DNA from: Candidatus Aenigmatarchaeota archaeon
GTDB lineage: Archaea > Aenigmatarchaeota > Aenigmatarchaeia > CG10238-14 > SCSR01
Direction: 5' to 3'
Assembly (NCBI GenBank): GCA_016187415.1
Contig: JACPJT010000007.1
Location: 1,289 to 65,288, forward strand
DNA length: 64,000 nt
Shown: positions 8,418 through 38,853 of the stretch, piece by piece
Layout of the letters: each line of letters opens with the position of its first letter
Numbering within the stretch: the stretch's first letter is position 1
Translations under genes and position numbers: made by a program
The notes under the pieces: model-generated
Databases searched by the model: none
The model's input: the letters and a program-made list of their open reading frames with translations, nothing else
Told to the model about the DNA's origin: nothing

Positions 8418-8515
8418 AATTAATTAGTAAATAGTAAAGGATTTAAGTTTTGATGACTTTGCAAAGTTCATCCAATACTTGCAGATAAAAGTTATTTTAG
8501 GTGCAAGGCTCTGTT

Positions 8516-8725
8516 TTACTTGAGCAACCTGAGGAAACCGACCACATCTTTCGTTTTACCTATGTTTTTAATTTGGATGAGATAGGATGAAAGGATTATC
8601 AAAGATAATAGTGCCGTAGCCAACGAAAACGCTCTGATCGAGCTGTTTCCGGTAAGTTCGTATGCTACCGCTGAAACGAAACTTATCAATAACCCCATCT
8701 TACCAATATTCTTGTACATTTTCAC
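8516..8725 (-). CDS. hypothetical small membrane protein (69 aa, 2 TM)
   Basis: Two hydrophobic helices. Confidence 0.35.
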   Translation of the reverse strand: MKMYKNIGKMGLLISFVSAVAYELTGNSSIRAFSLATALLSLIILSSYLIQIKNIGKTKDVVGFLRLLK

Positions 8726-12755: not shown

Positions 12756-13853
12756 ATGAACGTTCTTGTAGATGTGACAATCGGACCGGCGATAGAATTT
12801 ATCAGGAAAATTAAAAATGGGAAAGTCGCGATTGTTCATGGGCACGACAATGACAGCATCTGTTCAGCTGCGATAATTTACAGATTGCTGAAGAAAATTC
12901 ATAAAATAGAGCCGAAGCTGGTTGCTTCCGAATTTAATTATGCCATATCGAAAAATGTTCTCAATGAGGTCAAAAAACTTAAAGCTGAATATGTGATAGC
13001 AGTCGATTTGGCCGAAATAAACGTGGATCTTTTAACCGAACTTAGAAATATCTCGCAAGTAATGCTGATAGACCACCATACGCCGCGCGGTTATGTCAAA
13101 ATAACTTACGTGAACCCTAGAAACTACGACAAGTCGATTTACTTGCCAGCAACTTATCTTTGTTACAAAATTTATGAAAAACTGGCAGATGCGAAAGAAA
13201 TCCTATGGATCGCTGGCATTGGGACACTGTCTGACATGGGATTGAAAAATTGTAAGGACTTGTTTGAGGATATAAAATATCATCATAAAGAATTGATTGG
13301 CAATAACGAAAACATAGATGAAATCTTATTTGATAAATCTTTGCTTGGCAAGCTCGCTAAAATTTTTGATAGCGCGAGAGTTGTAAATGGGATTGATGGT
13401 GCCATCGCTGCTTTGGATGTTTTGCTGAAAACTGGGAATTACCAGAATGTCTTAAATGGGGAAGTTTCCGGTAGTAAGAAGCTCTTGGACTGGTATGGGC
13501 TGTCGGAAAAGGAATTCAATCGGCTGCTTAAAGATTTTTCAGTTAAGAAAAAAACGATCAAGAAATTTGTTTTGTATGAAGTGAAATCAAAATATAACAT
13601 GAAATCCGCTTTAGCTACATATTTGTCCAAGAAAATGAGTAGCGAAGTTCTTGTGATATACCAAAAATCTGGCGAGTATACTGATGTTAGTTTCAGGAGG
13701 GGTCCTGTTTCTATCATGGACCTGAATCAACTTGCAATCAATTCAATAATCGGAATGCCAGATTCGAATGGCGGTGGACACATACAAGCCGCCGCATGCA
13801 GATTCCCAACCAGATATTTTAAAAAATTCATGGGAAATTTGAAGTCGATATAA
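12756..13853 (+). CDS. DHH/DHHA1 family phosphoesterase (RecJ-like core or nanoRNase)
   Basis: 365 aa, DHH motifs (IVHGHDNDSICSAA, LIDHHTP) and C-terminal DHHA1 GGGH motif. Confidence 0.8.
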   Translation: MNVLVDVTIGPAIEFIRKIKNGKVAIVHGHDNDSICSAAIIYRLLKKIHKIEPKLVASEFNYAISKNVLNEVKKLKAEYVIAVDLAEINVDLLTELRNISQVMLIDHHTPRGYVKITYVNPRNYDKSIYLPATYLCYKIYEKLADAKEILWIAGIGTLSDMGLKNCKDLFEDIKYHHKELIGNNENIDEILFDKSLLGKLAKIFDSARVVNGIDGAIAALDVLLKTGNYQNVLNGEVSGSKKLLDWYGLSEKEFNRLLKDFSVKKKTIKKFVLYEVKSKYNMKSALATYLSKKMSSEVLVIYQKSGEYTDVSFRRGPVSIMDLNQLAINSIIGMPDSNGGGHIQAAACRFPTRYFKKFMGNLKSI

Positions 13854-15338: not shown

Positions 15339-16679
15339 TTAATATATAATTCCTTTACTTGAAGCCACGCCTTCTGGTTGGGAACGATCTATTCTAGTTC
15401 CCATTCTAAGTGCCCCACCAAGAACGTAAAATTGTGCTAATTCGGGATTGTCAAAGTGGTGTTTCCCATATGGTATTATACCATTGGTAGGCTCCAGATA
15501 CTCTGAATTTCCTCTTAATATTTCATGCAAAATATCATATGCCGTATTATCAGCAAACGGCATTTGTGTAATATCGGAGGGACCCACATGTAAATAAGCT
15601 TCTAACCCAGCTTTACTAAATATGGGCTCCAAATGATGTAAAGTTGTGCCGTATTTTTTTCTATACTCTTTTGTATGATTGCCGATATAGGAATATCTGT
15701 TACTAATACCGACAATAGCCAATGCCAACATTTTATCGTCTATGTAAAAGGCATTACCAAATCTAACAAGTCTCTGCGGAGACGACTTAACACTTGTAAG
15801 AAAAGCTTGAGCTTCAGCTTCTCCTTCGTCCTCAACTAAATGATGCTTTCCTATGCTACTACCTCTAATTTTATAATCAAACAAAGCACGCCTTGCCATT
15901 ATTCTTTTACCTTCTGAAAAGAGGGCTACATAGCCAGAATCTATAGGTGAAATTAGCTGTATATCAGAATCACCTGTACCGTCAAGATTTAGCTCGACTT
16001 CTATAGCGGCTTCACCGTGTCCAAGCTTTACATTTGCTGTTCTGCGGGCTATCGAATCTCCGCCCAAACCAATTGCTGGACGTGCCTTATACTGACGTAA
16101 CGCATTGCCTTTAGCTTTGTATAGTGCTTCCAATAGATGATGTAAGTCTATCAAACTACCGCCATATGGTACGGATCCCGGAGCTCTAAAGCGTGAAAAG
16201 TGTGCTGATAATGCGTATATATCGGATTGTAAAGTATGCGCCCATTCATCCAGGTTTTCTTTAATCCATCCTTTGGCTCTGTGGGCTAATTGTAAATCAC
16301 GTTCGTCAAATAGATTTTCTGTATCAAGATACAGACGTACTCTCGGGTTTTGTGATTGTTTCAATGCTACCATAGCTACAACCTCACCAAAAGCTATAGC
16401 TGCATATCCCTTACCAAAGATGGGTTCGTTTCTTCTATCTATCTGCCTTTTGAATTCCTGGCTTAATTCTCTGCCGCCCACTCCCCATGCATCCCGCTCA
16501 TCGAAATTATTTAATTCGACAGTTCCGGAAAGACCACCATGCGTCATCGGTTGTTCTATACCAGCATGACCAAGATATAATTTACTATGTTCGCTTTCTC
16601 TTACAGGTTGGGAGTATTCTACGTATGGCCTAGATTTACCATCGAGTTCAGGATCTCTTATAATAATTTCTGTTGGCAT
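15339..16679 (-). CDS. hypothetical protein (446 aa), GC-elevated, distal gene of a 5-gene operon
   Basis: Long ORF with several His-rich candidate metal/ligand motifs (HAGIEQPMTHGG, LIDLHHLL, GKHHL), but no family recognised. Confidence 0.5.
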   Translation of the reverse strand: MPTEIIIRDPELDGKSRPYVEYSQPVRESEHSKLYLGHAGIEQPMTHGGLSGTVELNNFDERDAWGVGGRELSQEFKRQIDRRNEPIFGKGYAAIAFGEVVAMVALKQSQNPRVRLYLDTENLFDERDLQLAHRAKGWIKENLDEWAHTLQSDIYALSAHFSRFRAPGSVPYGGSLIDLHHLLEALYKAKGNALRQYKARPAIGLGGDSIARRTANVKLGHGEAAIEVELNLDGTGDSDIQLISPIDSGYVALFSEGKRIMARRALFDYKIRGSSIGKHHLVEDEGEAEAQAFLTSVKSSPQRLVRFGNAFYIDDKMLALAIVGISNRYSYIGNHTKEYRKKYGTTLHHLEPIFSKAGLEAYLHVGPSDITQMPFADNTAYDILHEILRGNSEYLEPTNGIIPYGKHHFDNPELAQFYVLGGALRMGTRIDRSQPEGVASSKGIIY

Positions 16680-26110: not shown

Positions 26111-26112
26111 CT

Positions 26113-26185
26113 GGGGTCGTCGGCTAGCTTGGTAGGCTTCGAGCTTCGGGTGCTTGAGACCTGGGTTCAAATCCCAGCGACCCCA
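26113..26185 (+). tRNA. tRNA-Pro (anticodon CGG), intron-less
   Basis: Acceptor GGGGTCG/CGACCCC, anticodon stem CGAGC/GCTTG with loop TTCGGGT, T-arm CTGGG-TTCAAAT-CCCAG, discriminator A. Confidence 0.75.
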
Positions 26186-26208
26186 TTGACGAAATGTTTA
26201 AATAGTTT

Positions 26209-27496: not shown

Positions 27497-29713
27497 TTAA
27501 TGCTTAATAGTTTTCAACGTAGATTGTGACTCGCTTGCATTTTTAACGTCTTCACCCAGCTGTTTTTTAATTTCATACGCTGCTTTAATTCCAATAATCC
27601 CTATTAGCATTTCAGTCGGTGTGCTTCTTAATTTATCGAGTGTATCAAACCCAGCATTAAATAACCTTCGTGACCTTACTCTGCCTATCCCCTTCAACTT
27701 TACTAGCGGTACTAATTCCTCTTTGATGCCGTACTTCAATCTTATACGCAACTTTTTTAGAGGATTCAACAGTCCCTTTTCTCCGTTTAAAACCGCCAAT
27801 TCGTATAAGCCATATACTAGCCAATCGAGTATCCTAAGTTTACTATATAATTCACCAGGCGCGATTTTGAATTTTGTTAGCAGTTGGTCTTCTGAAGACT
27901 CGCTTATCCACCCATCGAACATCAGTGCTGTTTTGACTGATTTAAGAAATTCGTCATATTCGAGATCATACTCTTCTGGTATTTCTGCCAATAGTTGGTT
28001 ACCATGTCTTATAATTAGTTCTTCCGTATCGGAAATCTCATCTGACCTTACTGATACAAGCGGTCTTATTTCTAGTGAGTTTGAAGCAAGTTGCAGAAAA
28101 CTGAACTCTGTCAAATGTCTTTCTTTACATAATTTCAATCCTTCGAGAAAATAATGCGCAGTTAGTGGGTCGATATACAAATCTGAGATTCTTTTTCCGA
28201 TGGGTGTGGTTGTTATAACATTTTTTTGAATTCTAATCATAGACCATTCTTCAAGCTGCTTCAATATGTCATATAATTTTTCTTTTAGGATATCTATGTC
28301 ATTGTAATGAAACGCGTAAAATGTTCTGTTGAAAAACCCGATAATCGATTCCCTAGAATTACAGAACCCGCTCGAAATCAAAGCTAGTATATGCGCCCTA
28401 AGAATCGGCTCTAGCGCGAGTTTGGATGTTATATCCTCTGGCTGACCAAGAATAAAATGTTGTATCATAGACCTGGCGTCGCCTTCTGATTTTGCCAATA
28501 ATATCGATTCACCGAAAGTATCGTAAGTTGGTCTTCCAGCTCTGCCAACAAACTGCTTGTAATCCATTACAGGTATGTAAGTTGAACCGATTCCATCGTA
28601 ATATCGTTTCGCATCCCGTATAATAACTCTGAACGCTGGCAGATTAACTCCCATTGCCAATGTTGGCGTGGCGACAATTGCTTTTATCAAGCCATTTCTG
28701 AAATTGCTTTCAATCAGTCTTTTTTGTTCGCCTAATAAACCGGCGTGATGAAAGGCTGTGCCGAACTTTACACATTGTGCTAGTTTTCTGCACTGTTGTG
28801 TGGGTATTTCAATAACGCTCTCGATATCTTTGCTCAATTTGGTTAATTTCAACCGCGTATCACTATCCAATTTCTGGCTGGTTGTTTTACATAATTTTTC
28901 CGCAAGACTTTCAGCATTTCTCCTGGTGGAAGTGAAAACTAGCGCTTGTTTTTTTAGGTTCAACGTATTGTCGATGATTGAATTTTCTATTTCTAAAGTG
29001 TCGTTCAGTTCGTATCCTTCTCTGTCTTCAAAGTGTATTTTAGAATCGAATGCCACACCTTCATACAATTTTACAGGCCTGAAGTCGCTCGTGATTGGTG
29101 TTGCATTTAACCATTTTGATAATTCCTCGGCGTTGTTGATGGTGGCCGACAGCCCTAGAATCTGGGCGCTTGGAATAATAGACATCAACTTCGTTAACAT
29201 GATTTCCAATGTTGGACCACGCGAAGAATCGTTCATTGTGTGAATTTCATCAACTATTATAAGATCTACGTTTTGCACCCATCCAACATTATGCCTTAAC
29301 AGACTATCGAATTTTTCTGTAGTTAAACATACAACATCGTAATCCGCTAGCCACGAATCAGCAGAATCGAAATCACCGACACTTATTGCAACTTTAAAAT
29401 CACCGTCGAGAAATTTCTTGAAGTACTCATATTTTTCATTCGCCAGTGCTACCAACGGCGCAATATACACTACCTTAACACCCCTCTTATCTAAGAGTTT
29501 ATGCAGCATGCAAATTGCCGCGATTAATGTTTTCCCACTGGCTGTTGGCAAGGTCCCACTGGCTGTTGGCAAGGACAACACAAGATTCCTTTTGAATAGC
29601 CCTTCCTTAATCACATCTGCCTGAGGTTTGTATAACTCTTTTATGTTATCCTTTTCCAGCCTTTGGACGTATTTCTCAGGTATTCCATAACCGACTAACT
29701 CTCCGACTTTCAT
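27497..29713 (-). CDS. hel308: Hel308/Hjm (Ski2-like) DNA helicase with an in-frame 7-aa tandem duplication at the Walker A motif
   Basis: 738 aa. Walker A LPTASGKT duplicated as LPTASGTLPTASGKT, DEIH box (IIVDEIHTM), SAT motif (LSATI), motif VI (QFVGRAGR), winged-helix, ratchet and C-terminal HhH domain (LKGIGRVRSRRL). Confidence 0.9.
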   Translation of the reverse strand: MKVGELVGYGIPEKYVQRLEKDNIKELYKPQADVIKEGLFKRNLVLSLPTASGTLPTASGKTLIAAICMLHKLLDKRGVKVVYIAPLVALANEKYEYFKKFLDGDFKVAISVGDFDSADSWLADYDVVCLTTEKFDSLLRHNVGWVQNVDLIIVDEIHTMNDSSRGPTLEIMLTKLMSIIPSAQILGLSATINNAEELSKWLNATPITSDFRPVKLYEGVAFDSKIHFEDREGYELNDTLEIENSIIDNTLNLKKQALVFTSTRRNAESLAEKLCKTTSQKLDSDTRLKLTKLSKDIESVIEIPTQQCRKLAQCVKFGTAFHHAGLLGEQKRLIESNFRNGLIKAIVATPTLAMGVNLPAFRVIIRDAKRYYDGIGSTYIPVMDYKQFVGRAGRPTYDTFGESILLAKSEGDARSMIQHFILGQPEDITSKLALEPILRAHILALISSGFCNSRESIIGFFNRTFYAFHYNDIDILKEKLYDILKQLEEWSMIRIQKNVITTTPIGKRISDLYIDPLTAHYFLEGLKLCKERHLTEFSFLQLASNSLEIRPLVSVRSDEISDTEELIIRHGNQLLAEIPEEYDLEYDEFLKSVKTALMFDGWISESSEDQLLTKFKIAPGELYSKLRILDWLVYGLYELAVLNGEKGLLNPLKKLRIRLKYGIKEELVPLVKLKGIGRVRSRRLFNAGFDTLDKLRSTPTEMLIGIIGIKAAYEIKKQLGEDVKNASESQSTLKTIKH

Positions 29714-31587: not shown

Positions 31588-32372
31588 AGTAATTCTATTA
31601 TATCGCGCTCAGTGATGATGCCTTTTAGGCGACTTCCTTCGTCGATGACAGGAATTCCTCCGATCTTGTTGTCATTCATTAATTTTATAGCGTTTGAAAC
31701 ATCATCGTGTTCGTTTATATACATAATTGGTGATGTCATTATACTTTCTACATTCTCGTCCAGAAGTGATGTATTATAATTAACTTCATTGAGATATCGC
31801 AGAACATCATGACCAGTAACTATACCTATCACCATTCTATCATTAACGATAGGTAATCTTCTATAATGTGTGTTCACCATTGTCTTTATACAATTCTTTA
31901 TCGATGTGTTGGGTGTTATGTAAAACGGTTTGTGAGACATGACCTCAACTACCGGTATACCGAAATATTTACTTGTTAATAGTTTAACAAAGTCGTGCTC
32001 GGTAACCATACCGAGGAGTTTTTTATTTTTTACGACTGGCAGACAGTCTCGTCTCGAAATTTTTATTTTTTGCAATGCCTGACCTATGCTGTCTGTATCT
32101 TCTGTTAACACCATGTCACGCGTCATAAAATCTGATATACGTATATTTCTGGATACTCCTCTGAGTAATGCATTTAGTATGTCCATGTAGCTTATTATTC
32201 CGACTATTTCTTGTGATTTTGATACTATAGGTATAGTCCTATGTTCAGAAGATATTATGGTTTTCACCACAGATGTTAAACTGTCAAACTCAAACGAATA
32301 AGATGGCGTCAAATTGGCTAGATGTTTAATATTATCGGATTTATTGATACCAATATCCTCTAATCTGATCAT
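31584..32372 (-). CDS. CBS-domain protein (four CBS repeats)
   Basis: 262 aa, repeated CBS pattern (GIPVxD.....GIITxxDI). Confidence 0.8.
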   Translation of the reverse strand: MIRLEDIGINKSDNIKHLANLTPSYSFEFDSLTSVVKTIISSEHRTIPIVSKSQEIVGIISYMDILNALLRGVSRNIRISDFMTRDMVLTEDTDSIGQALQKIKISRRDCLPVVKNKKLLGMVTEHDFVKLLTSKYFGIPVVEVMSHKPFYITPNTSIKNCIKTMVNTHYRRLPIVNDRMVIGIVTGHDVLRYLNEVNYNTSLLDENVESIMTSPIMYINEHDDVSNAIKLMNDNKIGGIPVIDEGSRLKGIITERDIIELL

Positions 32373-32911
32373 GATTCTCTTTCTTCTCTACAACTCTCAC
32401 ACAACCATTCATTGCCAGCATTCTCCAAGTCCTCTGAATAGTTATCACAAGAATCGCAGATACCAAGTGCAATTTTCTCTTTGATTTCAAGCGGCTTTTC
32501 CTTCATTTTTAATCTATATTCAAGCAAATCCAGCATCTCTGGTGATGTTCGTGCTATATCGGTTAAAGATATAACACCAACAACTTTTCCATTTGATACA
32601 ACAGGTAATCTGTGTATATTATTTTCTTTCATTTTCCTAGATGCGGCAAGAATATCGTCTTCAGGATCTATTGCTACAACAGGTTCCTTCATCATTTTTT
32701 CAATCTTAATTCCGCTTGCCTTGAAATTTTTAGAAACAATTTGCTCGATTAAATCGCTTTCAGAAATTACACCAACCGGGTTGTTTTTTTCAACAACTAC
32801 AAGAAATCCTTTCCTATGCTTTCGCATCAATTTTCCAGCGTCTTGAGATGTCTTCTTTGAATCTATCGTCAGTACTGGAGATGACATTACATCTTTAACT
32901 AGTATAACCAC
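32369..32911 (-). CDS. CBS-pair protein with C-terminal CxxC..CxxC zinc ribbon
   Basis: 180 aa, two CBS motifs plus CDSCDNY...CESCREE. Confidence 0.75.
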   Translation of the reverse strand: MVILVKDVMSSPVLTIDSKKTSQDAGKLMRKHRKGFLVVVEKNNPVGVISESDLIEQIVSKNFKASGIKIEKMMKEPVVAIDPEDDILAASRKMKENNIHRLPVVSNGKVVGVISLTDIARTSPEMLDLLEYRLKMKEKPLEIKEKIALGICDSCDNYSEDLENAGNEWLCESCREERES

Positions 32912-32941: not shown

Positions 32942-33268
32942 TTAATAAGATTCTATGAATTTTTCCAACGGCTCACCATCTGAGGTGGTAACCTTCCCTT
33001 TTGGGGGGAGTATTCGAATTTTACTGTATCCGAAGTCGACAATTAGGAAGAATGGAAAGCCTTCGAATTCTGGAAGGTTATAGCCATAATAATAAAATGC
33101 TTTTTTGTTTGTTGATTTGACCTGCAAGAGAATGCATTTTTGATTTTTTAAACAAACCAAATCTGCCTCTCCAAGACTTGCACCTGCCCGTATGACAGTC
33201 CAACCGAACTTTTGGAAAAAAAGTCTGATTTTTCTCTCTATTCTATATCCTTTTCTCTTTGTATGCAT
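32942..33268 (-). CDS. hjc: Holliday junction resolvase Hjc-like PD-(D/E)xK nuclease
   Basis: 108 aa, RKGYRIERKI...GWTVIRAGAS..GEADLVCL...ILLQVKST matches the Hjc E..D..EXK arrangement. Confidence 0.65.
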   Translation of the reverse strand: MHTKRKGYRIERKIRLFFQKFGWTVIRAGASLGEADLVCLKNQKCILLQVKSTNKKAFYYYGYNLPEFEGFPFFLIVDFGYSKIRILPPKGKVTTSDGEPLEKFIESY

Positions 33269-33300: not shown

Positions 33301-33981
33301 ATGGTAAACATAGCTATCGTCAGTTGCATACATGGTGATATGGAAAACTTAATGAAGTTTGTTGATAAAATATCTCTTCTAAATATAGATTTCGTAATCT
33401 GTCCTGGAGATTTCACAGATTTCGCTATACCAAAGGGATTTACTAGACGCGATATAGGAAAACTGATCATAGAGGAGTTAAAGGGATTGGGAAAACCGTT
33501 GATGGCTGTACCTGGTAGTTGGGATAAAGAAATTATAGACCTTCTAAAGAAGGAGAAGGTGAGTGTCCACGGAGAGGGAAAGGTGATTGGTGGTATTGGT
33601 TTCTATGGGTATGGCGGGGCCAAAACTCCCTTTAACACACCATTCGAGCCGAGTGAGGGTGAAATAGAATTGGGGCTGGAAAAGTCATATAATGAAATTA
33701 AGAGTGCCGGTGTAAAAATTCAGGTCACACATGCACCGCCAAATAGAACAAAAATGGATATGATAGCAAGTGGTGCTCATGTTGGTTCTGATGCTGTGAG
33801 AGAATTTATAGAAAAAAAACAGCCTAATGTGGCAATTTGCGCACATATACACGAAAGTAGAGGTGTCGACGAGCTTGGAAAAACTAAACTTATTAATTCG
33901 GGGAGATTCCCTGAAGGGTATGTTGGGATAATCGAGATTAACGATTCAGAGATGACAACAAAAGTAATCAATCTGATATGA
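33301..33981 (+). CDS. metallophosphoesterase (MJ0936/YfcE-like calcineurin-fold phosphodiesterase)
   Basis: 226 aa, motifs D-x-H (CIHGD), GDFTD, THAPP, AHIHESRG. Confidence 0.75.
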   Translation: MVNIAIVSCIHGDMENLMKFVDKISLLNIDFVICPGDFTDFAIPKGFTRRDIGKLIIEELKGLGKPLMAVPGSWDKEIIDLLKKEKVSVHGEGKVIGGIGFYGYGGAKTPFNTPFEPSEGEIELGLEKSYNEIKSAGVKIQVTHAPPNRTKMDMIASGAHVGSDAVREFIEKKQPNVAICAHIHESRGVDELGKTKLINSGRFPEGYVGIIEINDSEMTTKVINLI

Positions 33982-34051: not shown

Positions 34052-34444
34052 ATGACGGAGACTGTTTTAACTCAATTAAACGAGATACAACCTAGAGATA
34101 ATATAAATATTGATTTCGAACACGCCATTGCACTTGCGGAACGTTTAGACTTCTTGGATGTCCAACTTTTGAGAAAGTTTTACATGAGCGGGAAGGAGCA
34201 ACCGTTTGATTTGCAACCGTATTGTTTTCCGATGCTCTATGGTGAGATGAAAATAACACATAAAATCAAGATAGGAAGAGAAGCTCTAAGGAAGCGCTTA
34301 GATAATCTTGTCTTAAACGGGTTGTTAGAGAAGGTTAAAAGATCCAGTCCAGCGAACTATTCTCCTTATACTGAGAAAGTAAGTTTCATACGTGCAATTA
34401 TCACAAAGTTTTTTGTTATTAATGGGCTAACTAAATTTTTATGA
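34052..34444 (+). CDS. hypothetical protein with probable winged-helix (130 aa)
   Basis: C-terminal REALRKRLDNLVLNGLLEKVKRSSPANYSPY looks wHTH-like. Confidence 0.4.
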   Translation: MTETVLTQLNEIQPRDNINIDFEHAIALAERLDFLDVQLLRKFYMSGKEQPFDLQPYCFPMLYGEMKITHKIKIGREALRKRLDNLVLNGLLEKVKRSSPANYSPYTEKVSFIRAIITKFFVINGLTKFL

Positions 34445-34760
34445 GATTTCCTAACCTTTTTTACGAGCATTCTGTCTTATTTTTCTGATATTCCCAACGG
34501 ATATTTCTGCGCTTTCCTCGACAAACCAATAAAACTTCAGAATGTAGTAGATATAGTAGGTGGGTGCTTTACGGTTCTGTATCTGTAAACTAAAAACATA
34601 TCTATTATATATATTATAACTATGTTATTATGTATAATAATATTTATTTTCTTATGTACAGACGACAAGGACATACATCGACTATTACAACTTCGAACTG
34701 AAATCTAACAAATTCTTTTAGAATCTTTATAAAAATCATTTTACAAATAATAACGTTTAT
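34445..34760. other. 316-bp AT-rich non-coding region (alternating TATATA runs) between two wH genes, directly upstream of the DP1-like/PolB module
   Basis: Seen in sequence; largest AT-rich gap in the window. Confidence 0.5.
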
Positions 34761-35018
34761 ATGAAACGTGGAAGACCCAACATACGTCACATGGTCCAGA
34801 AGGAGATAATTACATTATTAACCAGTTTAAGCACACCAGTAACAACCTCATCGATCTTAAAGGAGATTTCAAAAACTGTGAACAGGCGTATAAGTTGGAA
34901 CACCATACAAAAATACATACAAGAATTGGTTGAAAGCGGTAAGATTCAAGTGATTCAACTGCCGCATTCGAAGATAGATAACAAACCAGGTCTCATAGTA
35001 TATACCTTAAAAAAGTAG
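34761..35018 (+). CDS. small winged-helix DNA-binding protein (85 aa)
   Basis: HTH (TSSILKEISKTVNRRISWNTIQKYIQELVESGKI) plus wing (PGLIVYTL). Abuts the DP1-like ORF with a 1-nt gap. Confidence 0.55.
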   Translation: MKRGRPNIRHMVQKEIITLLTSLSTPVTTSSILKEISKTVNRRISWNTIQKYIQELVESGKIQVIQLPHSKIDNKPGLIVYTLKK

Positions 35019-35019
35019 A

Positions 35020-36129
35020 ATGATTCTACCATATATGAATAAAACAGAGATATTAAATTATTTCCTAAGAAAGGGTGCACAGATAAATAAAGAGGCGTTG
35101 GAGGAACTTGAAAATAACCAATATCTCCAAGAGGTAATATTAAAATCAACAGAAATGAGATTACCTCCAGTAATCACAGACGATTTCCTAAAACAATATA
35201 AAAATACGTCGTCCGTAAAAGAAAAGATACCAGTTAAAAATTTATCTCAGATACTAGATTATAGATACAATTTCATAAAAAACATTCTGATAAACAACCC
35301 ACAATTAACGAATTTAATTTCAATTAATAGAATTGGGGACAAAATTAAACAGTTCTCAGTTATCGGTGTAGTCACCGAACATAACAATAAGAAGTTAGTC
35401 ATAGAAGACACAACAGGAGAAAGTCTATTTGAGATAAGTGAAGAACTAGGAAAATATATCATAGAAGACGAGGTGATAGGACTTGCCTGTGAGCGGCAAC
35501 AACAAACCAACAATGTAACAAATATAGTATATCCAGATATACCGTTAAAGAGGGACGCTAGTAAAACTAAAACACCCAAATCATGTATCTTCATTTCGGA
35601 TATGCACATGGATTCGCCTGCATTCAACGAAAAATATTATAAAAATTTCATCTCCTGGCTTAAGGAGCAAAAAGACCTAGATGTTTTTATATTCGGTGAG
35701 GTGTCGACTAAAATAGAACAAATTGAAAGATTGCGGAATGATATATCCCAAACCTCAGTCACACTCGAAAAGCTTAACGTTAACGATTCAGTGAGAGTGA
35801 AAACCGAAAATATAGAAATAATGTTATCACGAGGGTGGTTTCTCGACCAATATATGAAATTATGGAAATCCGCACCCGATTTAACTCTAGTAAATTTGTT
35901 CCGAAAGCGAAACCTCAACCCGAAACTGACACCACAATATTATAACAATACATTTTTCCTCGATACAATACCAGATATAATATCACTGTCTGACATCGGA
36001 CAACCAGCTATAACAAACTACAAAGGTACTACAATATTGACCAACGGCAGCTTTTTGAAGGAACCTATATATTGGGTAATAAATTTACAAACACGCGAAA
36101 CATTTAAAATTGACTTTTCTATTACTTAA
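35020..36129 (+). CDS. DP1-like / eukaryotic-B-subunit-like DNA polymerase small subunit homolog with degenerate phosphodiesterase motifs
   Basis: 369 aa. OB-fold signature SVIGVVTEHNNKKLVIEDTTGESLFEI. Retained motif I CIFISDMHMDS...F..WL. Motif II degenerate (FIFGEVS instead of GDxxD). No GNHE or GHxH. Stop is 3 nt before the polB start. Confidence 0.6.
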   Translation: MILPYMNKTEILNYFLRKGAQINKEALEELENNQYLQEVILKSTEMRLPPVITDDFLKQYKNTSSVKEKIPVKNLSQILDYRYNFIKNILINNPQLTNLISINRIGDKIKQFSVIGVVTEHNNKKLVIEDTTGESLFEISEELGKYIIEDEVIGLACERQQQTNNVTNIVYPDIPLKRDASKTKTPKSCIFISDMHMDSPAFNEKYYKNFISWLKEQKDLDVFIFGEVSTKIEQIERLRNDISQTSVTLEKLNVNDSVRVKTENIEIMLSRGWFLDQYMKLWKSAPDLTLVNLFRKRNLNPKLTPQYYNNTFFLDTIPDIISLSDIGQPAITNYKGTTILTNGSFLKEPIYWVINLQTRETFKIDFSIT

Positions 36130-36132
36130 CGT

Positions 36133-38853
36133 ATGGAACTAGATTTTCAGCTTCTCGACTGCGATTATATAAACTTAGGTAATAAGCCAGTTGTGAGGCT
36201 CTTCGGAAAAACTAAAGATGGTAAATCAGTATGCGTATTTTTCAGGAATTACAGCCCATATTTTTATGTGTTACCAAAAAACAACTTTGAAAAAATAGAA
36301 GAGATGATAACAAAAAAATTCACTGGTCTCGTGACAAAAATAGAGAATGTTCAAAAGTTCCTCCCTAAAGGGTATCAAGTACAGAAGCAATCTATTTTGA
36401 AAATAACATTGAACGACCCATCAAGAGTACCGGAAGTACGGGATTCACTGCAGTCAGAAAAACTAGTGGAAGGCGTTTACGAGGCCGACATACTCTTCAA
36501 ATATAGGTTTATGGCAGATTTTAACATATCTGGCTTCAACTGGATAAGAGCTACAGGTATACAAACACGGACATCCACAGTGAAAGTTGATATTGTTGTA
36601 GAGGCGACAGAACTTAAAGAAATCGACAATTTCAGAAATGTTGACTTGAAATACATGTCTTTTGATATAGAAACAATTTCAGAGGAGGGTGCACCGGATC
36701 CCAGAAAAGATATAATCGGAATGATTAGCATATCGTTTTCACCACATTACAATTCACAAACATCTCTTGTTATAGTATCGAAAATCTCCCCTAAACTAAA
36801 CAAAAACATTAAAGTTTTTCAAAACGAAAAGGAAATGTTACAAGAGTTCCTACAAATTTTGGAAAATTATGACCCAGATGTATTGGTCGGTTATAACATA
36901 AACAATTTCGACTTACCATACATACTTTCTAGACTAAAGGAAAATAATTTACATCAGATGCTCGGCAGATGCAAGCAAAAACCTATGATATCCCGAAAGA
37001 TTGGTGTGCAATACAGAAATGTTGCAGTCGGCAGAATAATCGTGGATGCATACGAATTGATCAAGGAATCTATCAGGAAAGGAAATCTCAGACTTAAAAG
37101 GCTTGGCTTGGGTGATGTATCAAAAGAATTGTTAAACGACACAAAAATGGATATTTCACACAGCGAAATATTCGGCCATTGGCATGGAGAGAGTGAGCAA
37201 GTAGCAAAACTTATCGAGTATGCACGAAAAGACTCAGATCTCGCGCTAAGGTTAGTCCTAGAGAAAGGATTTCTTGACAAGTTTTTCGAACTAGGAAAGG
37301 TTTCAGGGCTTGTTTTACAAGATTGTTTGGATGGTGGCGAGGCACAGAGAGTTGAAAACATCTTGTTGAAAGAATTTGACAAAAATGAGTATGTTCTACC
37401 ATGTAAACCGCGCGAAGAGATGCTGGAAACAGAGGAAATGCAAGAACTTAAGGGTGCACTTGTCTTAGAACCGAAGATCGGTTTGCATACAGATCCGATT
37501 GTATATCTTGACTTCAAGTCAATGTACCCGTCAATTTTTATTGCATACAACATTTGTCCGACAACTCTAATGACGAACGAGAATATGAATGTGGAATCAA
37601 TAACAACGCCTTACGGTACAAAATTTGTTTCCAAATCTGTGAAAACAGGAATCATGCCAACAATACTCAAAAAATTAATCGACGAAAGGGATAAAGTACG
37701 TGCAGAAGAGAAAAAAAGTACTGAAAAAGAAGTCAAACGCCTGCTTGAGGCAAAACAGATAGCGCTAAAAATAATGACCAATGCATTTTACGGATATACG
37801 GGTTATTTGCGTGCTAGGTTATACATTCCAGCTATAGCCAACACAATAACAGGTTGTGGTAGATTTCTAATAAACAAAACAAAACACATCATTGAAGAGA
37901 AGACAGGTTATGAAGTTGTTTATGGCGACACCGATTCTATAATGGTAAAGATTAAAACCGATGCAATAGAAACAGCGTTCGATATAGGTAAAAATTTGGA
38001 GTCCCTGGTAAATACGGAATTGACAGGAATAATACAAATGAAGATTGAAAAAATATTCAAATCACTCCTGATTCTTTCAAAAAAACGTTATACCGGGTTA
38101 GCTTACGAAAAATCAAACGGCGAATGGAAAGAAGATTTGGTAATGAAAGGTATTGAAACTGTTAGAAGAGATTGGTGCAACGCGGCTACAAAAACACTTT
38201 TTGAAGTTTTGAATATTTTATTGCGTGAACAAAACCCCAAAAAAGCATTCATATACATCAAAGACTATGTATCAAAACTTGAAAGAAATGAAATACCAAT
38301 AGACGATCTAATCATAACAAAAAGTATTTCCAAATCACTTTCGGCATACAAGGGTATGCAGCCTCATGTAGAGCTTGTTAAAAAAATGAAAAAGAGGAAT
38401 GGCACGGCTCCAGGTGTAGGTGATAGAGTGGGTTTTGTTATTGTGAAAGGAATGCAACTATTATCACAACGATCGGAAGATCCAGAGTTCGTAACTGCTA
38501 ACAAAATACCACTAGATTCAAAATATTATCTCGAAAGCCAAATATTACCACCCTTGGAAAGGGTGTTTGAAGTTATAGGAATTAGCAAATCTGAACTGAT
38601 GGGCATCGGGAGGCAAACTTTGTTGAAAGAACTTTTTGGAAATAATCATCGTGTTAACGGCACAACAAATGATGTTAAGGAATCCATAGACAGTTTCGAC
38701 GGGTTCGTCTGCAGTAAATGTAATAAATTCTATCGTAGGATACCACTTATAGGAAAGTGTCTTGAATGTCAAGGTGAGATTTTATTTTCTTCGCCCCAGG
38801 GCAAATCACGGAATCTAATGGCCTATACATATGGTAACAATTTAAAGGTTTAA
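36133..38853 (+). CDS. polB: family B DNA polymerase with intact exo and pol motifs and a C-terminal CxxC-x12-CxxC zinc finger
   Basis: 906 aa. Exo I FDIET, Exo II YNINNFDLPY, Exo III YARKDSD. Pol motif A DFKSMYPSI, motif B KIMTNAFYGYTGY, motif C VYGDTDS. C-terminal CSKCNKFYRRIPLIGKCLEC. Confidence 0.95.
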   Translation: MELDFQLLDCDYINLGNKPVVRLFGKTKDGKSVCVFFRNYSPYFYVLPKNNFEKIEEMITKKFTGLVTKIENVQKFLPKGYQVQKQSILKITLNDPSRVPEVRDSLQSEKLVEGVYEADILFKYRFMADFNISGFNWIRATGIQTRTSTVKVDIVVEATELKEIDNFRNVDLKYMSFDIETISEEGAPDPRKDIIGMISISFSPHYNSQTSLVIVSKISPKLNKNIKVFQNEKEMLQEFLQILENYDPDVLVGYNINNFDLPYILSRLKENNLHQMLGRCKQKPMISRKIGVQYRNVAVGRIIVDAYELIKESIRKGNLRLKRLGLGDVSKELLNDTKMDISHSEIFGHWHGESEQVAKLIEYARKDSDLALRLVLEKGFLDKFFELGKVSGLVLQDCLDGGEAQRVENILLKEFDKNEYVLPCKPREEMLETEEMQELKGALVLEPKIGLHTDPIVYLDFKSMYPSIFIAYNICPTTLMTNENMNVESITTPYGTKFVSKSVKTGIMPTILKKLIDERDKVRAEEKKSTEKEVKRLLEAKQIALKIMTNAFYGYTGYLRARLYIPAIANTITGCGRFLINKTKHIIEEKTGYEVVYGDTDSIMVKIKTDAIETAFDIGKNLESLVNTELTGIIQMKIEKIFKSLLILSKKRYTGLAYEKSNGEWKEDLVMKGIETVRRDWCNAATKTLFEVLNILLREQNPKKAFIYIKDYVSKLERNEIPIDDLIITKSISKSLSAYKGMQPHVELVKKMKKRNGTAPGVGDRVGFVIVKGMQLLSQRSEDPEFVTANKIPLDSKYYLESQILPPLERVFEVIGISKSELMGIGRQTLLKELFGNNHRVNGTTNDVKESIDSFDGFVCSKCNKFYRRIPLIGKCLECQGEILFSSPQGKSRNLMAYTYGNNLKV

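Follow-up and report, generated by a model that had tools for sequence, protein, structure and literature searches.

A very probable two-subunit replicase operon of Aenigmatarchaeota: a family-B DNA polymerase with a DP2-type zinc finger beside a predicted nuclease-dead DP1

Genes of the locus and the DP1-like protein

The DNA analyzed here (the window) is a 64-kb stretch of contig JACPJT010000007.1 from a Candidatus Aenigmatarchaeota archaeon. Three tightly packed genes on the + strand span positions 34761-38853. In the list of open reading frames (ORFs), gene 1 of the operon encodes a basic winged-helix (wHTH) protein of 85 amino acids (aa; 34761..35018). It is followed by a 369-aa ORF for a protein resembling DP1, the small subunit of archaeal DNA polymerase D (PolD) (35020..36129), and by a family-B DNA polymerase (PolB) of 906 aa (36133..38853). 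An original prediction, made from the sequence without database searches, had described the polymerase as translationally coupled to an inactivated partner of the DP1/B-subunit type. The three ORFs were found at the positions that it gave. The small wHTH gene ahead of the pair and a 316-bp AT-rich non-coding spacer (34445-34760) were also found as claimed; the G+C content of the spacer is 28%, against about 36% for the window. The junction between the DP1-like and PolB genes was read directly and is TAA-cgt-ATG, a stop-to-start gap of 3 nt. This spacing suggests translational coupling of the two genes. Because the public gene calls and all homologues begin at the residue aligning with M6, the start of the DP1-like protein is probably at 35035 and the real product has 364 aa. 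For the products of all three genes, 100% identical proteins are recorded from a metagenome-assembled genome of Candidatus Aenigmarchaeota archaeon.

NCBIfam models of the PolD small subunit matched residues 62-219 of the DP1-like protein (E=1e-29, 103.8 bits), and the solved DP1 chains in the PDB matched it with E=5e-8. The Pfam models DNA_pol_E_B and DNA_pol_D_N, which had been proposed as a check, gave no match. The only Pfam match was a sub-threshold one to ATP-synt_ab_Xtn; PF04042 matched 21 of the 52 relatives of the protein, not the window copy. Since Pfam is silent on the 369-aa protein, the homology was drawn from NCBIfam, the PDB and fold comparison. An AlphaFold2 model built from 52 homologues had a pLDDT of 91.7. 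The predicted fold comprises an N-terminal helical domain, an OB barrel (residues ~111-170; OB segment at 35356-35430, +) and an alpha/beta sandwich, a degenerate calcineurin-like phosphodiesterase (PDE) domain. The N-terminal part of the protein can be aligned with that of DPANN DP1s and is helical in the prediction. When the model was compared with the PDB by Foldseek, P. abyssi DP1 ranked top (E=3.6e-21, TM 0.69). Next came the B-subunits of Pol epsilon (first surfacing in the human replisome entry 7pfo), Pol delta (p50) and Pol alpha, and the accessory subunit of Pol zeta; the matches to eukaryotic B-subunits had E values of 1e-16 to 1e-10. NCBIfam, the PDB DP1 chains and Foldseek all agree with the homology to DP1 and the B-subunits that had been claimed.

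Active PolD DP1 possesses five metal-binding motifs (DxH, GD, GNHD, H and GHxH). We read the motif states of the DP1-like protein from an alignment with active DPANN DP1s, and only motif I is present (SDMHMDS; 35590-35616, +). Motif II (35686-35706, +) is changed from GD to GE, with about 19 residues missing after it. The segment carrying GNHD (motif III) has been lost, the H of motif IV is replaced by R, and the GHxH of motif V by SDIG. The deleted motif III includes the His equivalent to H451, which is mutated in the proofreading-deficient P. abyssi DP1 (PDB 6hmf). The alignment confirms the motif states given in the original prediction (I kept, II degenerate, III-V gone). The non-catalytic DP1 blocks RKRNLNP and NLxTRE are retained, and more than 60 positions are invariant among 12 DP1-like homologues. 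By its motifs, the 369-aa protein is predicted to be an inactivated DP1/B-subunit-type protein.

The relatives of the DP1-like protein differ in how much of the nuclease domain is left. P0028-P0036 (387-398 aa) keep GD, and in several of them the motif IV His and GHxH are present as well; all are without the N-H of the motif III GNHD. In the shortened relatives P0037-38 and P0045/47 (350-355 and 319 aa), most of the nuclease domain is gone. The alignment shows a graded decay of the DP1 nuclease domain across Aenigmatarchaeota.

The polymerase and its C-terminal zinc finger

Pfam analysis of PolB gave matches to DNA_pol_B (E=9e-117) and DNA_pol_B_exo1 (E=4e-40). The exonuclease motifs (ExoI FDIE177, ExoII N255-D260 and ExoIII Y363-D367) and the polymerase motifs (A D460FKSMYPS, B K546, C YGDTDS597 and KKRY650) are intact. 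The Pfam matches and the catalytic motifs, all of which were found, support the earlier assignment of a complete exo+/pol+ PolB, and the enzyme is predicted to be catalytically intact. Its closest solved relative by sequence is the catalytic subunit of human Pol delta (E=5e-113), with the Thermococcales PolB next (~7e-102). The search for PolB relatives returned 973 matches at E<=1e-50, and the sources named among the 120 closest clusters are all Aenigmatarchaeota or unclassified archaeon. Three PolB homologues (P0194, P0218 and P0246; 1251-1335 aa) carry intein/LAGLIDADG domains; none is present in the window copy.

Between its thumb and its zinc finger, PolB has a sequence, QTLLKELF (residues 828-835; 38614..38637, +), that resembles a PCNA-interacting peptide (PIP) box. 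The Q-x-x-L-x-x-h-h pattern is present in every PolB C-terminus examined, and from this pattern QTLLKELF may bind PCNA.

The C-terminus of PolB contains a single CxxC-x12-CxxC (C860-C879), as had been predicted. The Cys4 zinc finger formed by C860/C863/C876/C879 is encoded at 38710..38769 (+). A profile of the C-terminal domain (CTD) was built from nine such PolB C-termini and searched against the PDB. It matched only DP2, the large subunit of PolD, at residues 1108-1160 of the T. kodakarensis protein (E=8e-9) and residues 1111-1152 of the P. abyssi protein (E=1.4e-6), and both matches fall on Zn-III. NCBIfam DP2 models match the same finger residues with E ~1e-5. When three genuine DPANN DP2 proteins were compared by tblastn with ~200 kb of aenigmatarchaeal DNA, the finger segment was the sole match. 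The RRxP loop of the finger is invariant across the PolB C-termini. In the PolD structure, the KxRRxP loop of DP2 Zn-III enters the acidic groove that separates the OB domain of DP1 from its PDE domain; a 20-aa Zn-III peptide by itself binds DP1 at nM affinity, and Zn-III also contacts the DNA minor groove (PMC6355029). As judged from the profile matches, the PolB Cys4 finger is the DP2 Zn-III module, equivalent to eukaryotic CysB. The module thus appears to be of the B-subunit-docking type, as the original prediction had proposed. With only 27 residues after the finger, PolB lacks the helical bundle found in the DP2 CTD.

Among the 120 closest PolB clusters, 119 have the finger, the exception being a truncated record, and the DP1-like/PolB gene pair was found in 12 lineages.

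The related locus L004 contains, at 15496-15741, an isolated extra copy of the segment for the PolB zinc finger, with 65% identity to that of the window. This copy is found close to the end of the contig, 3.8 kb 3' of polB, and has no upstream frame or evident start. It may be left over from a duplication or reflect an assembly artefact.

Conservation of the operon and the two-subunit replicase

Nine related genome loci (L004-L012) and three further, more distant lineages, including L015, were compared with the window. Those related genome loci that bear a taxon name are from metagenome-assembled genomes of Aenigmatarchaeota, and the others are labelled uncultured archaeon, with one uncultured bacterium. 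In the nine loci the order is Hjc (- strand), a metallophosphoesterase, a 130-aa protein (HP130), the spacer, wHTH, DP1-like and PolB. The identities in these loci are 51-73% for PolB, 51-78% for wHTH and 32-51% for the DP1-like protein. The three distant lineages, whose DP1-like proteins are 25-34% identical, still carry wHTH, DP1-like and PolB with the finger. In L015 the neighbours are entirely different, yet the trio is kept. The wHTH gene precedes the DP1-like/PolB pair in 11 of 11 lineages with upstream DNA. The gap between the DP1-like and PolB genes is 3-55 nt in 12 of 12 sampled lineages, and that between the wHTH and DP1-like genes is -17 to +45 nt.

Alternatively, the DP1-like gene could be a relic in decay that plays no part in the polymerase; PolB would then act alone, and its finger would serve another purpose, such as DNA binding. 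The DP1-like protein evolves much faster than PolB in the nine loci, its forms become progressively shorter, down to 319 aa, and Zn-III of PolD also touches the DNA minor groove (PMC6355029). However, the DP1-like frame is intact and its fold is confidently predicted, the 60+ invariant positions and the RKRNLNP and NLxTRE blocks persist, the tight gene linkage extends across the phylum, and an interaction of the two proteins is reported (PMC12680538). We consider a relic very unlikely.

The window is a core chromosomal region, as is the setting of the trio in each of the 11 related lineages with upstream DNA. It contains the genes for FtsZ, ribosomal proteins L1/L10/S4/S13, a RecJ-like DHH protein, Nop5/fibrillarin, a Hel308-type helicase, Kae1, a CBS-domain protein and Hjc. 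The original prediction had offered, as one option, that the polymerase module belongs to a mobile element. In such a case the module would be part of a casposon, a provirus or a plasmid-derived island and not of the host replisome; the mobile-element ancestry of PolB suggested by Kazlauskas et al. (PMC7544198) and the inteins in some PolB homologues would be in line with this. In contrast, the module is flanked by the Hjc, CBS, Kae1, Hel308, Nop5/fibrillarin, ribosomal and FtsZ genes, and the same neighbours occur in the nine genomes, in which the DP1-like protein is only 32-51% identical. Neither an integrase nor terminal repeats were seen around the trio, and no phage PolB exceeds ~25% identity to the window PolB. 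PolB is also widespread in Aenigmatarchaeota, as the 973 matches indicate. Thus, given the core chromosomal flanks and the synteny, the mobile-element option is not supported, and we give it hardly any weight.

No DP2 segment beyond Zn-III, and no ORF of >450 aa able to be DP2, was found in the window and ~136 kb of related loci. The 369-aa protein could in principle be a genuine, diverged small subunit of PolD whose DP2 partner is encoded elsewhere, with its position next to PolB being incidental. Its nearest relative by both sequence and fold is DP1, and the survey of this genome covered 64 kb. Four of the five nuclease motifs are lost, however, PolB itself bears the DP1-docking Zn-III finger, and the pair with polB is conserved in 12 lineages. 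With the reported absence of DP2 from the phylum and the reported DP1-PolB interaction (PMC7544198, PMC12680538), a DP2 partner elsewhere is highly improbable.

The arrangement has been described before. Kazlauskas et al. in 2020 defined the PolB group B6-aenigma1, which has one DP2-zfIII-like motif, and an inactivated DP1 clade, 'Aenigma_GB_GCA_002789635-like' (PMC7544198). They reported that most Aenigmarchaeota are without DP2, concluded that PolB replaced DP2, and suggested that the aenigmatarchaeal PolB derives originally from a mobile element (PMC7544198). A paper of 2025 found that Aenigmatarchaeota and Baldrarchaeia are the sole archaeal lineages retaining DP1 without DP2, and reported, from yeast two-hybrid assays and AlphaFold3, that the DP1 of Aenigmatarchaeota interacts with PolB-DP2CTD (PMC12680538). 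The former B6-aenigma2 sequences, with two motifs, are now ascribed to Baldrarchaeia contamination (PMC12680538). The window system shares with B6-aenigma1 the phylum, the single Zn-III-like finger, the exo+/pol+ PolB and the inactivated DP1, and nothing essential differs. The eukaryote-like arrangement of a PolB with an inactive B-subunit noted in the original prediction is therefore real, but its suggestion of an undescribed architecture was wrong, since the PolB group, the inactive DP1 and the absence of DP2 were published in 2020 and the interaction in 2025. Because those two papers had recognized the significance of the arrangement, the window adds a further member and not a discovery. 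The operon, the gene neighbours, the winged-helix gene and the spacer repeats find no mention in the main texts of the two papers (PMC7544198, PMC12680538).

The gene order was compared with that of canonical DPANN PolD loci. In four of four (L016 3931-12463; L017 4251-11144; L018 3263-10025; L019 3532-10139), a long spacer is followed by tightly packed orc1/cdc6, dp1 and dp2. Relative to this PolD operon of sister DPANN lineages, cdc6 is swapped for the 85-aa wHTH gene, which is without detectable homology to the winged-helix domain of Cdc6. The canonical cdc6-dp1-dp2 locus is likely the ancestral state of the aenigmatarchaeal one. The same gene order, with each gene remodelled, fits a scenario in which polB took the place of the 5' part of dp2 in situ. 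The dp2 gene of L016 carries an intein.

Based on these results, the locus is very probably a replicative operon in which PolB, with its DP2 Zn-III finger, is paired with a nuclease-dead DP1 as a two-subunit replicase. The homologies, motif states, fold, operon conservation and chromosomal context come from the present analysis; the literature supplies the lack of DP2 in the phylum and the interaction seen by yeast two-hybrid (PMC7544198, PMC12680538). One BRE/TATA promoter would drive the wHTH gene, the DP1-type subunit and PolB. PolB would have acquired the last piece of DP2, the Zn-III finger, and would take the place of DP2 as the catalytic subunit. By analogy with DP2 Zn-III/DP1 in PolD and with CysB/B-subunits in Pol alpha/delta/epsilon, the finger with its RRxP loop may dock in the OB/PDE-like groove of the DP1-like protein. 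Proofreading would be carried out by the 3'-5' exonuclease of PolB itself, so that the DP1 nuclease site would be free to decay. The DP1-like subunit may be retained as a scaffold. For example, it could link the polymerase to GINS/CMG through its N-terminal helical domain, in the manner of DP1N-Gins51 in PolD; binding of Gins51 by the N-terminal domain of DP1 is reported for Thermococcus (PMC9023282). In evolution, polB may have replaced dp2 in situ within an ancestral cdc6-dp1-dp2 operon.

Several points weigh against a two-subunit replicase of this kind. The CTD keeps the finger alone; the helical bundle, which in PolD likewise touches DP1, is missing, and the aenigmatarchaeal CTD has been termed a 'degenerate DP2CTD' (PMC12680538). 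The NCBIfam score of the DP1-like protein is far under the equivalog cut-off of 445, and its Pfam search gave no DP1/B-subunit match. A profile of the N-terminal domain gave only spurious matches to repeat proteins among solved structures, and the identity of this domain with DP1N rests on the DPANN alignment. Finally, the search for DP2 in this genome covered the 64-kb window.

In comparison with archaeal PolD, the proposed replicase has a homologous OB+PDE small subunit, a homologous Zn-III/RRxP docking module and the same order of small-subunit gene before catalytic gene. In contrast, its catalytic body is a family-B polymerase and not a double-psi beta-barrel DP2, the nuclease site of its DP1 is dead, and its CTD has no helical part of the DP2 type. 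With the eukaryotic Pol delta (p125-p50), alpha and epsilon pairs it shares a family-B subunit, a C-terminal Cys4 module and a nuclease-dead DP1 homologue, and the motif state of the DP1-like protein (I only) is the same as in eukaryotic B-subunits. However, the CTD of eukaryotic PolBs has two Cys4 modules (CysA and CysB) and a helical linker, whereas the window PolB has one module; the system is without CysA, an Fe-S module or a helical CTD, and lies in a prokaryotic operon. No homologues of p66/Pol32 or p12 of Pol delta were identified for the window system. The PolB3-DP2CTD of Baldrarchaeia (Asgard) is likewise a PolB with a DP2-derived CTD binding DP1 in a lineage without DP2, although the CTD is full-length there and 'degenerate' in Aenigmatarchaeota (PMC12680538).

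A further archaeal family-B replicase with small accessory subunits is the crenarchaeal PolB1 holoenzyme (PolB1-PBP1-PBP2). PBP1 and PBP2 are not known to be related to DP1, and no DP2-type finger is known to be involved in this holoenzyme.

The locus would be a living example of a proposed step in the origin of eukaryotic replicases, in which a PolB captures the docking finger of DP2 and its partner is a nuclease-dead DP1 that was to become the B-subunit. A possible addition to the literature is the gene order, which suggests a replacement of dp2 at its original site in the ancestral cdc6-dp1-dp2 operon. Further possible additions are the conserved basic wHTH gene at the operon head and the repeat-bearing AT-rich spacer located where sister lineages have oriC. 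These points render the origin and the regulation of replication in Aenigmatarchaeota directly testable.

The winged-helix gene, the spacer and the neighbouring genes

The wHTH protein at the head of the operon gave a winged-helix model with a pLDDT of 90.4, and its pI is 10.45. It possesses an invariant N-terminal MKRGRP, which is AT-hook-like, and an invariant WNTxxK opening helix 3 (the recognition helix). The structural matches of the model are generic. All of its 81 relatives are ~85 aa long, every source-named one is from Aenigmatarchaeota, and none has a function annotation that fits. An exhaustive profile search gave 96 relatives, nearly all small stand-alone proteins, and none of the 96 is fused to a polymerase subunit. 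That the protein is a relic of the Cdc6 winged-helix domain was rejected at the sequence level (hhalign probability 0.2%), and none of 76 wHTH members has a Cdc6_C match in Pfam. The gene is apparently phylum-specific to Aenigmatarchaeota, a conserved operon head, and new relative to both papers.

The spacer was analyzed for signals. A putative BRE/TATA-type promoter, AGAATCTTTATAAAAA, lies at 34720..34735 (+), ~35 nt 5' of the first ATG of the operon. In an alignment of seven spacers, GAAAGTTTATAAAAA is the sole near-invariant block, and the archaeal BRE/TATA consensus suggests that this block acts as the promoter. Register analysis revealed five phased 22-nt repeat units at 34442..34551 (+), with the consensus TGAAnTTTCCAAAnAATTTTTn; the array begins at the stop codon of the upstream gene. 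In all 8 of the related genomes compared, 22 nt was the best period (z = 4.5-11.1), and none of 2000 shuffles scored as high as the real sequence. The array is visible only by such phase-register statistics. It was missed by TRF, a position weight matrix trained on seven other genomes was unspecific, and single-site iteron matches were not enriched in the window (147 vs 140 expected). Repeats were also located at L006 7402-7511, L007 3695-3804 and L011 455-542. An AT-rich tract (34580..34660) has at least 87.5% A+T in 40-nt windows, and most related spacers have a similarly placed tract. An Rfam search of the spacer gave no match.

Autoregulation of the polymerase operon is the most likely role of the wHTH protein, although we hold it only tentatively, with somewhat less than even confidence. 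The protein would bind the 22-nt repeats and an inverted copy overlapping BRE/TATA. Its basic character with the AT-hook-like RGRP and the invariant WNTxxK, and the conservation of the five phased repeats in 8 genomes, point in this direction. The repeat core also resembles the reverse complement of the promoter block, a 9.8-bit site overlaps BRE/TATA at 34716, and the protein always stands alone, never joined to a polymerase subunit. On the other side, the repeat motif is low in information and unenriched as single sites, distant lineages showed no such repeats although they retain the wHTH gene, and L015 has no spacer at all. Roles in origin binding or as a third subunit are possible but unsupported.

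The position of the spacer also raises the question of a replication origin. The tract at 34580-34660 agrees with the AT-rich unwinding element of archaeal oriC. In the canonical DPANN loci, origin recognition box (ORB)-like TTCCAnnGGAAAT...GGGGTG elements surround an AT-rich tract, and the cdc6-proximal spacers have clear inverted ORB elements (a TCCAnnGGAAA dyad and a G-string). The window spacer has only direct 22-nt repeats with a TTTCCA core, the GGTGGGTG block and a weak GTAGTAG/CTATTAC inverted pair. The AT tract is flanked by GTAGTAG/ATAGTAGG (34544, 34553) on the left and CTATTAC (34682) on the right. No GC-skew switch was detected at the spacer. No orc1/cdc6 was found in the window or the related loci, and the 85-aa wHTH gene occupies that position. 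The spacer might be a chromosomal origin inherited from an ancestral oriC-cdc6-dp1-dp2 locus, with the wHTH protein binding the 22-bp repeats and acting either as an origin factor or as a third component that tethers the replicase to DNA. We regard this as unlikely. If true, the whole ancestral locus would have been remodelled in place, cdc6 becoming wHTH, dp1 a dead scaffold, and dp2 a polB with Zn-III.

Over 34544-34690, GTAGTAG/ATAGTAGGTGGGTG precedes the AT tract and CTATTAC follows it, and a similar CCAGTAG...ACTACTAC pair is present in L011. The flanking pair is loosely ORB-like around an unwinding element and inconsistent between genomes.

HP130 (34052-34444) lies directly 5' of the spacer in most Aenigmatarchaeota loci. 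Its identity is 52-71% in the closer genomes and 29% in the most distant one aligned. No homology was detected against Pfam and the PDB, and its C-terminal half has a winged-helix-like sequence pattern. An intact calcineurin-like metallophosphoesterase of 226 aa (33301-33981) lies two genes 5' of the dead DP1 and is syntenic in most loci. That it belongs to the same family as the metallophosphoesterase beside PolB in L015 was rejected (E=0.013). Farther upstream are the Hjc resolvase (32942-33268) and, at 32369-32911 (- strand), a CBS-domain protein that ends in its own zinc ribbon, CxxC...CxxC (CDSCDNY...CESC). A weak tblastn match of the PolB C-terminal segment fell not there but in the adjacent CBS gene (32142-32285, E=0.011) and was regarded as chance. 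The Hel308-type helicase (DEAD, archaeal helicase domain 4 and HhH) is encoded at 27497-29713, and the DHH/DHHA1 RecJ/GAN-like protein at 12756-13853.

Directly after polB, a long cluster for glycan/cell-surface biosynthesis occupies 38877-63792. It encodes a cupin epimerase, dTDP-glucose dehydratase-like enzymes, a UDP-glucose dehydrogenase, DegT aminotransferases and glycosyltransferases, as well as FemAB-like acyltransferases, a flippase and a UDP-GlcNAc 2-epimerase. The tRNA callers differed. Rfam gave tRNAs at 1743-1831 (89 nt) and 26113-26185, whereas ARAGORN gave tRNA-Pro at 26112-26186 and, at 8426-8521, a 96-nt tRNA-Cys that may contain an intron.

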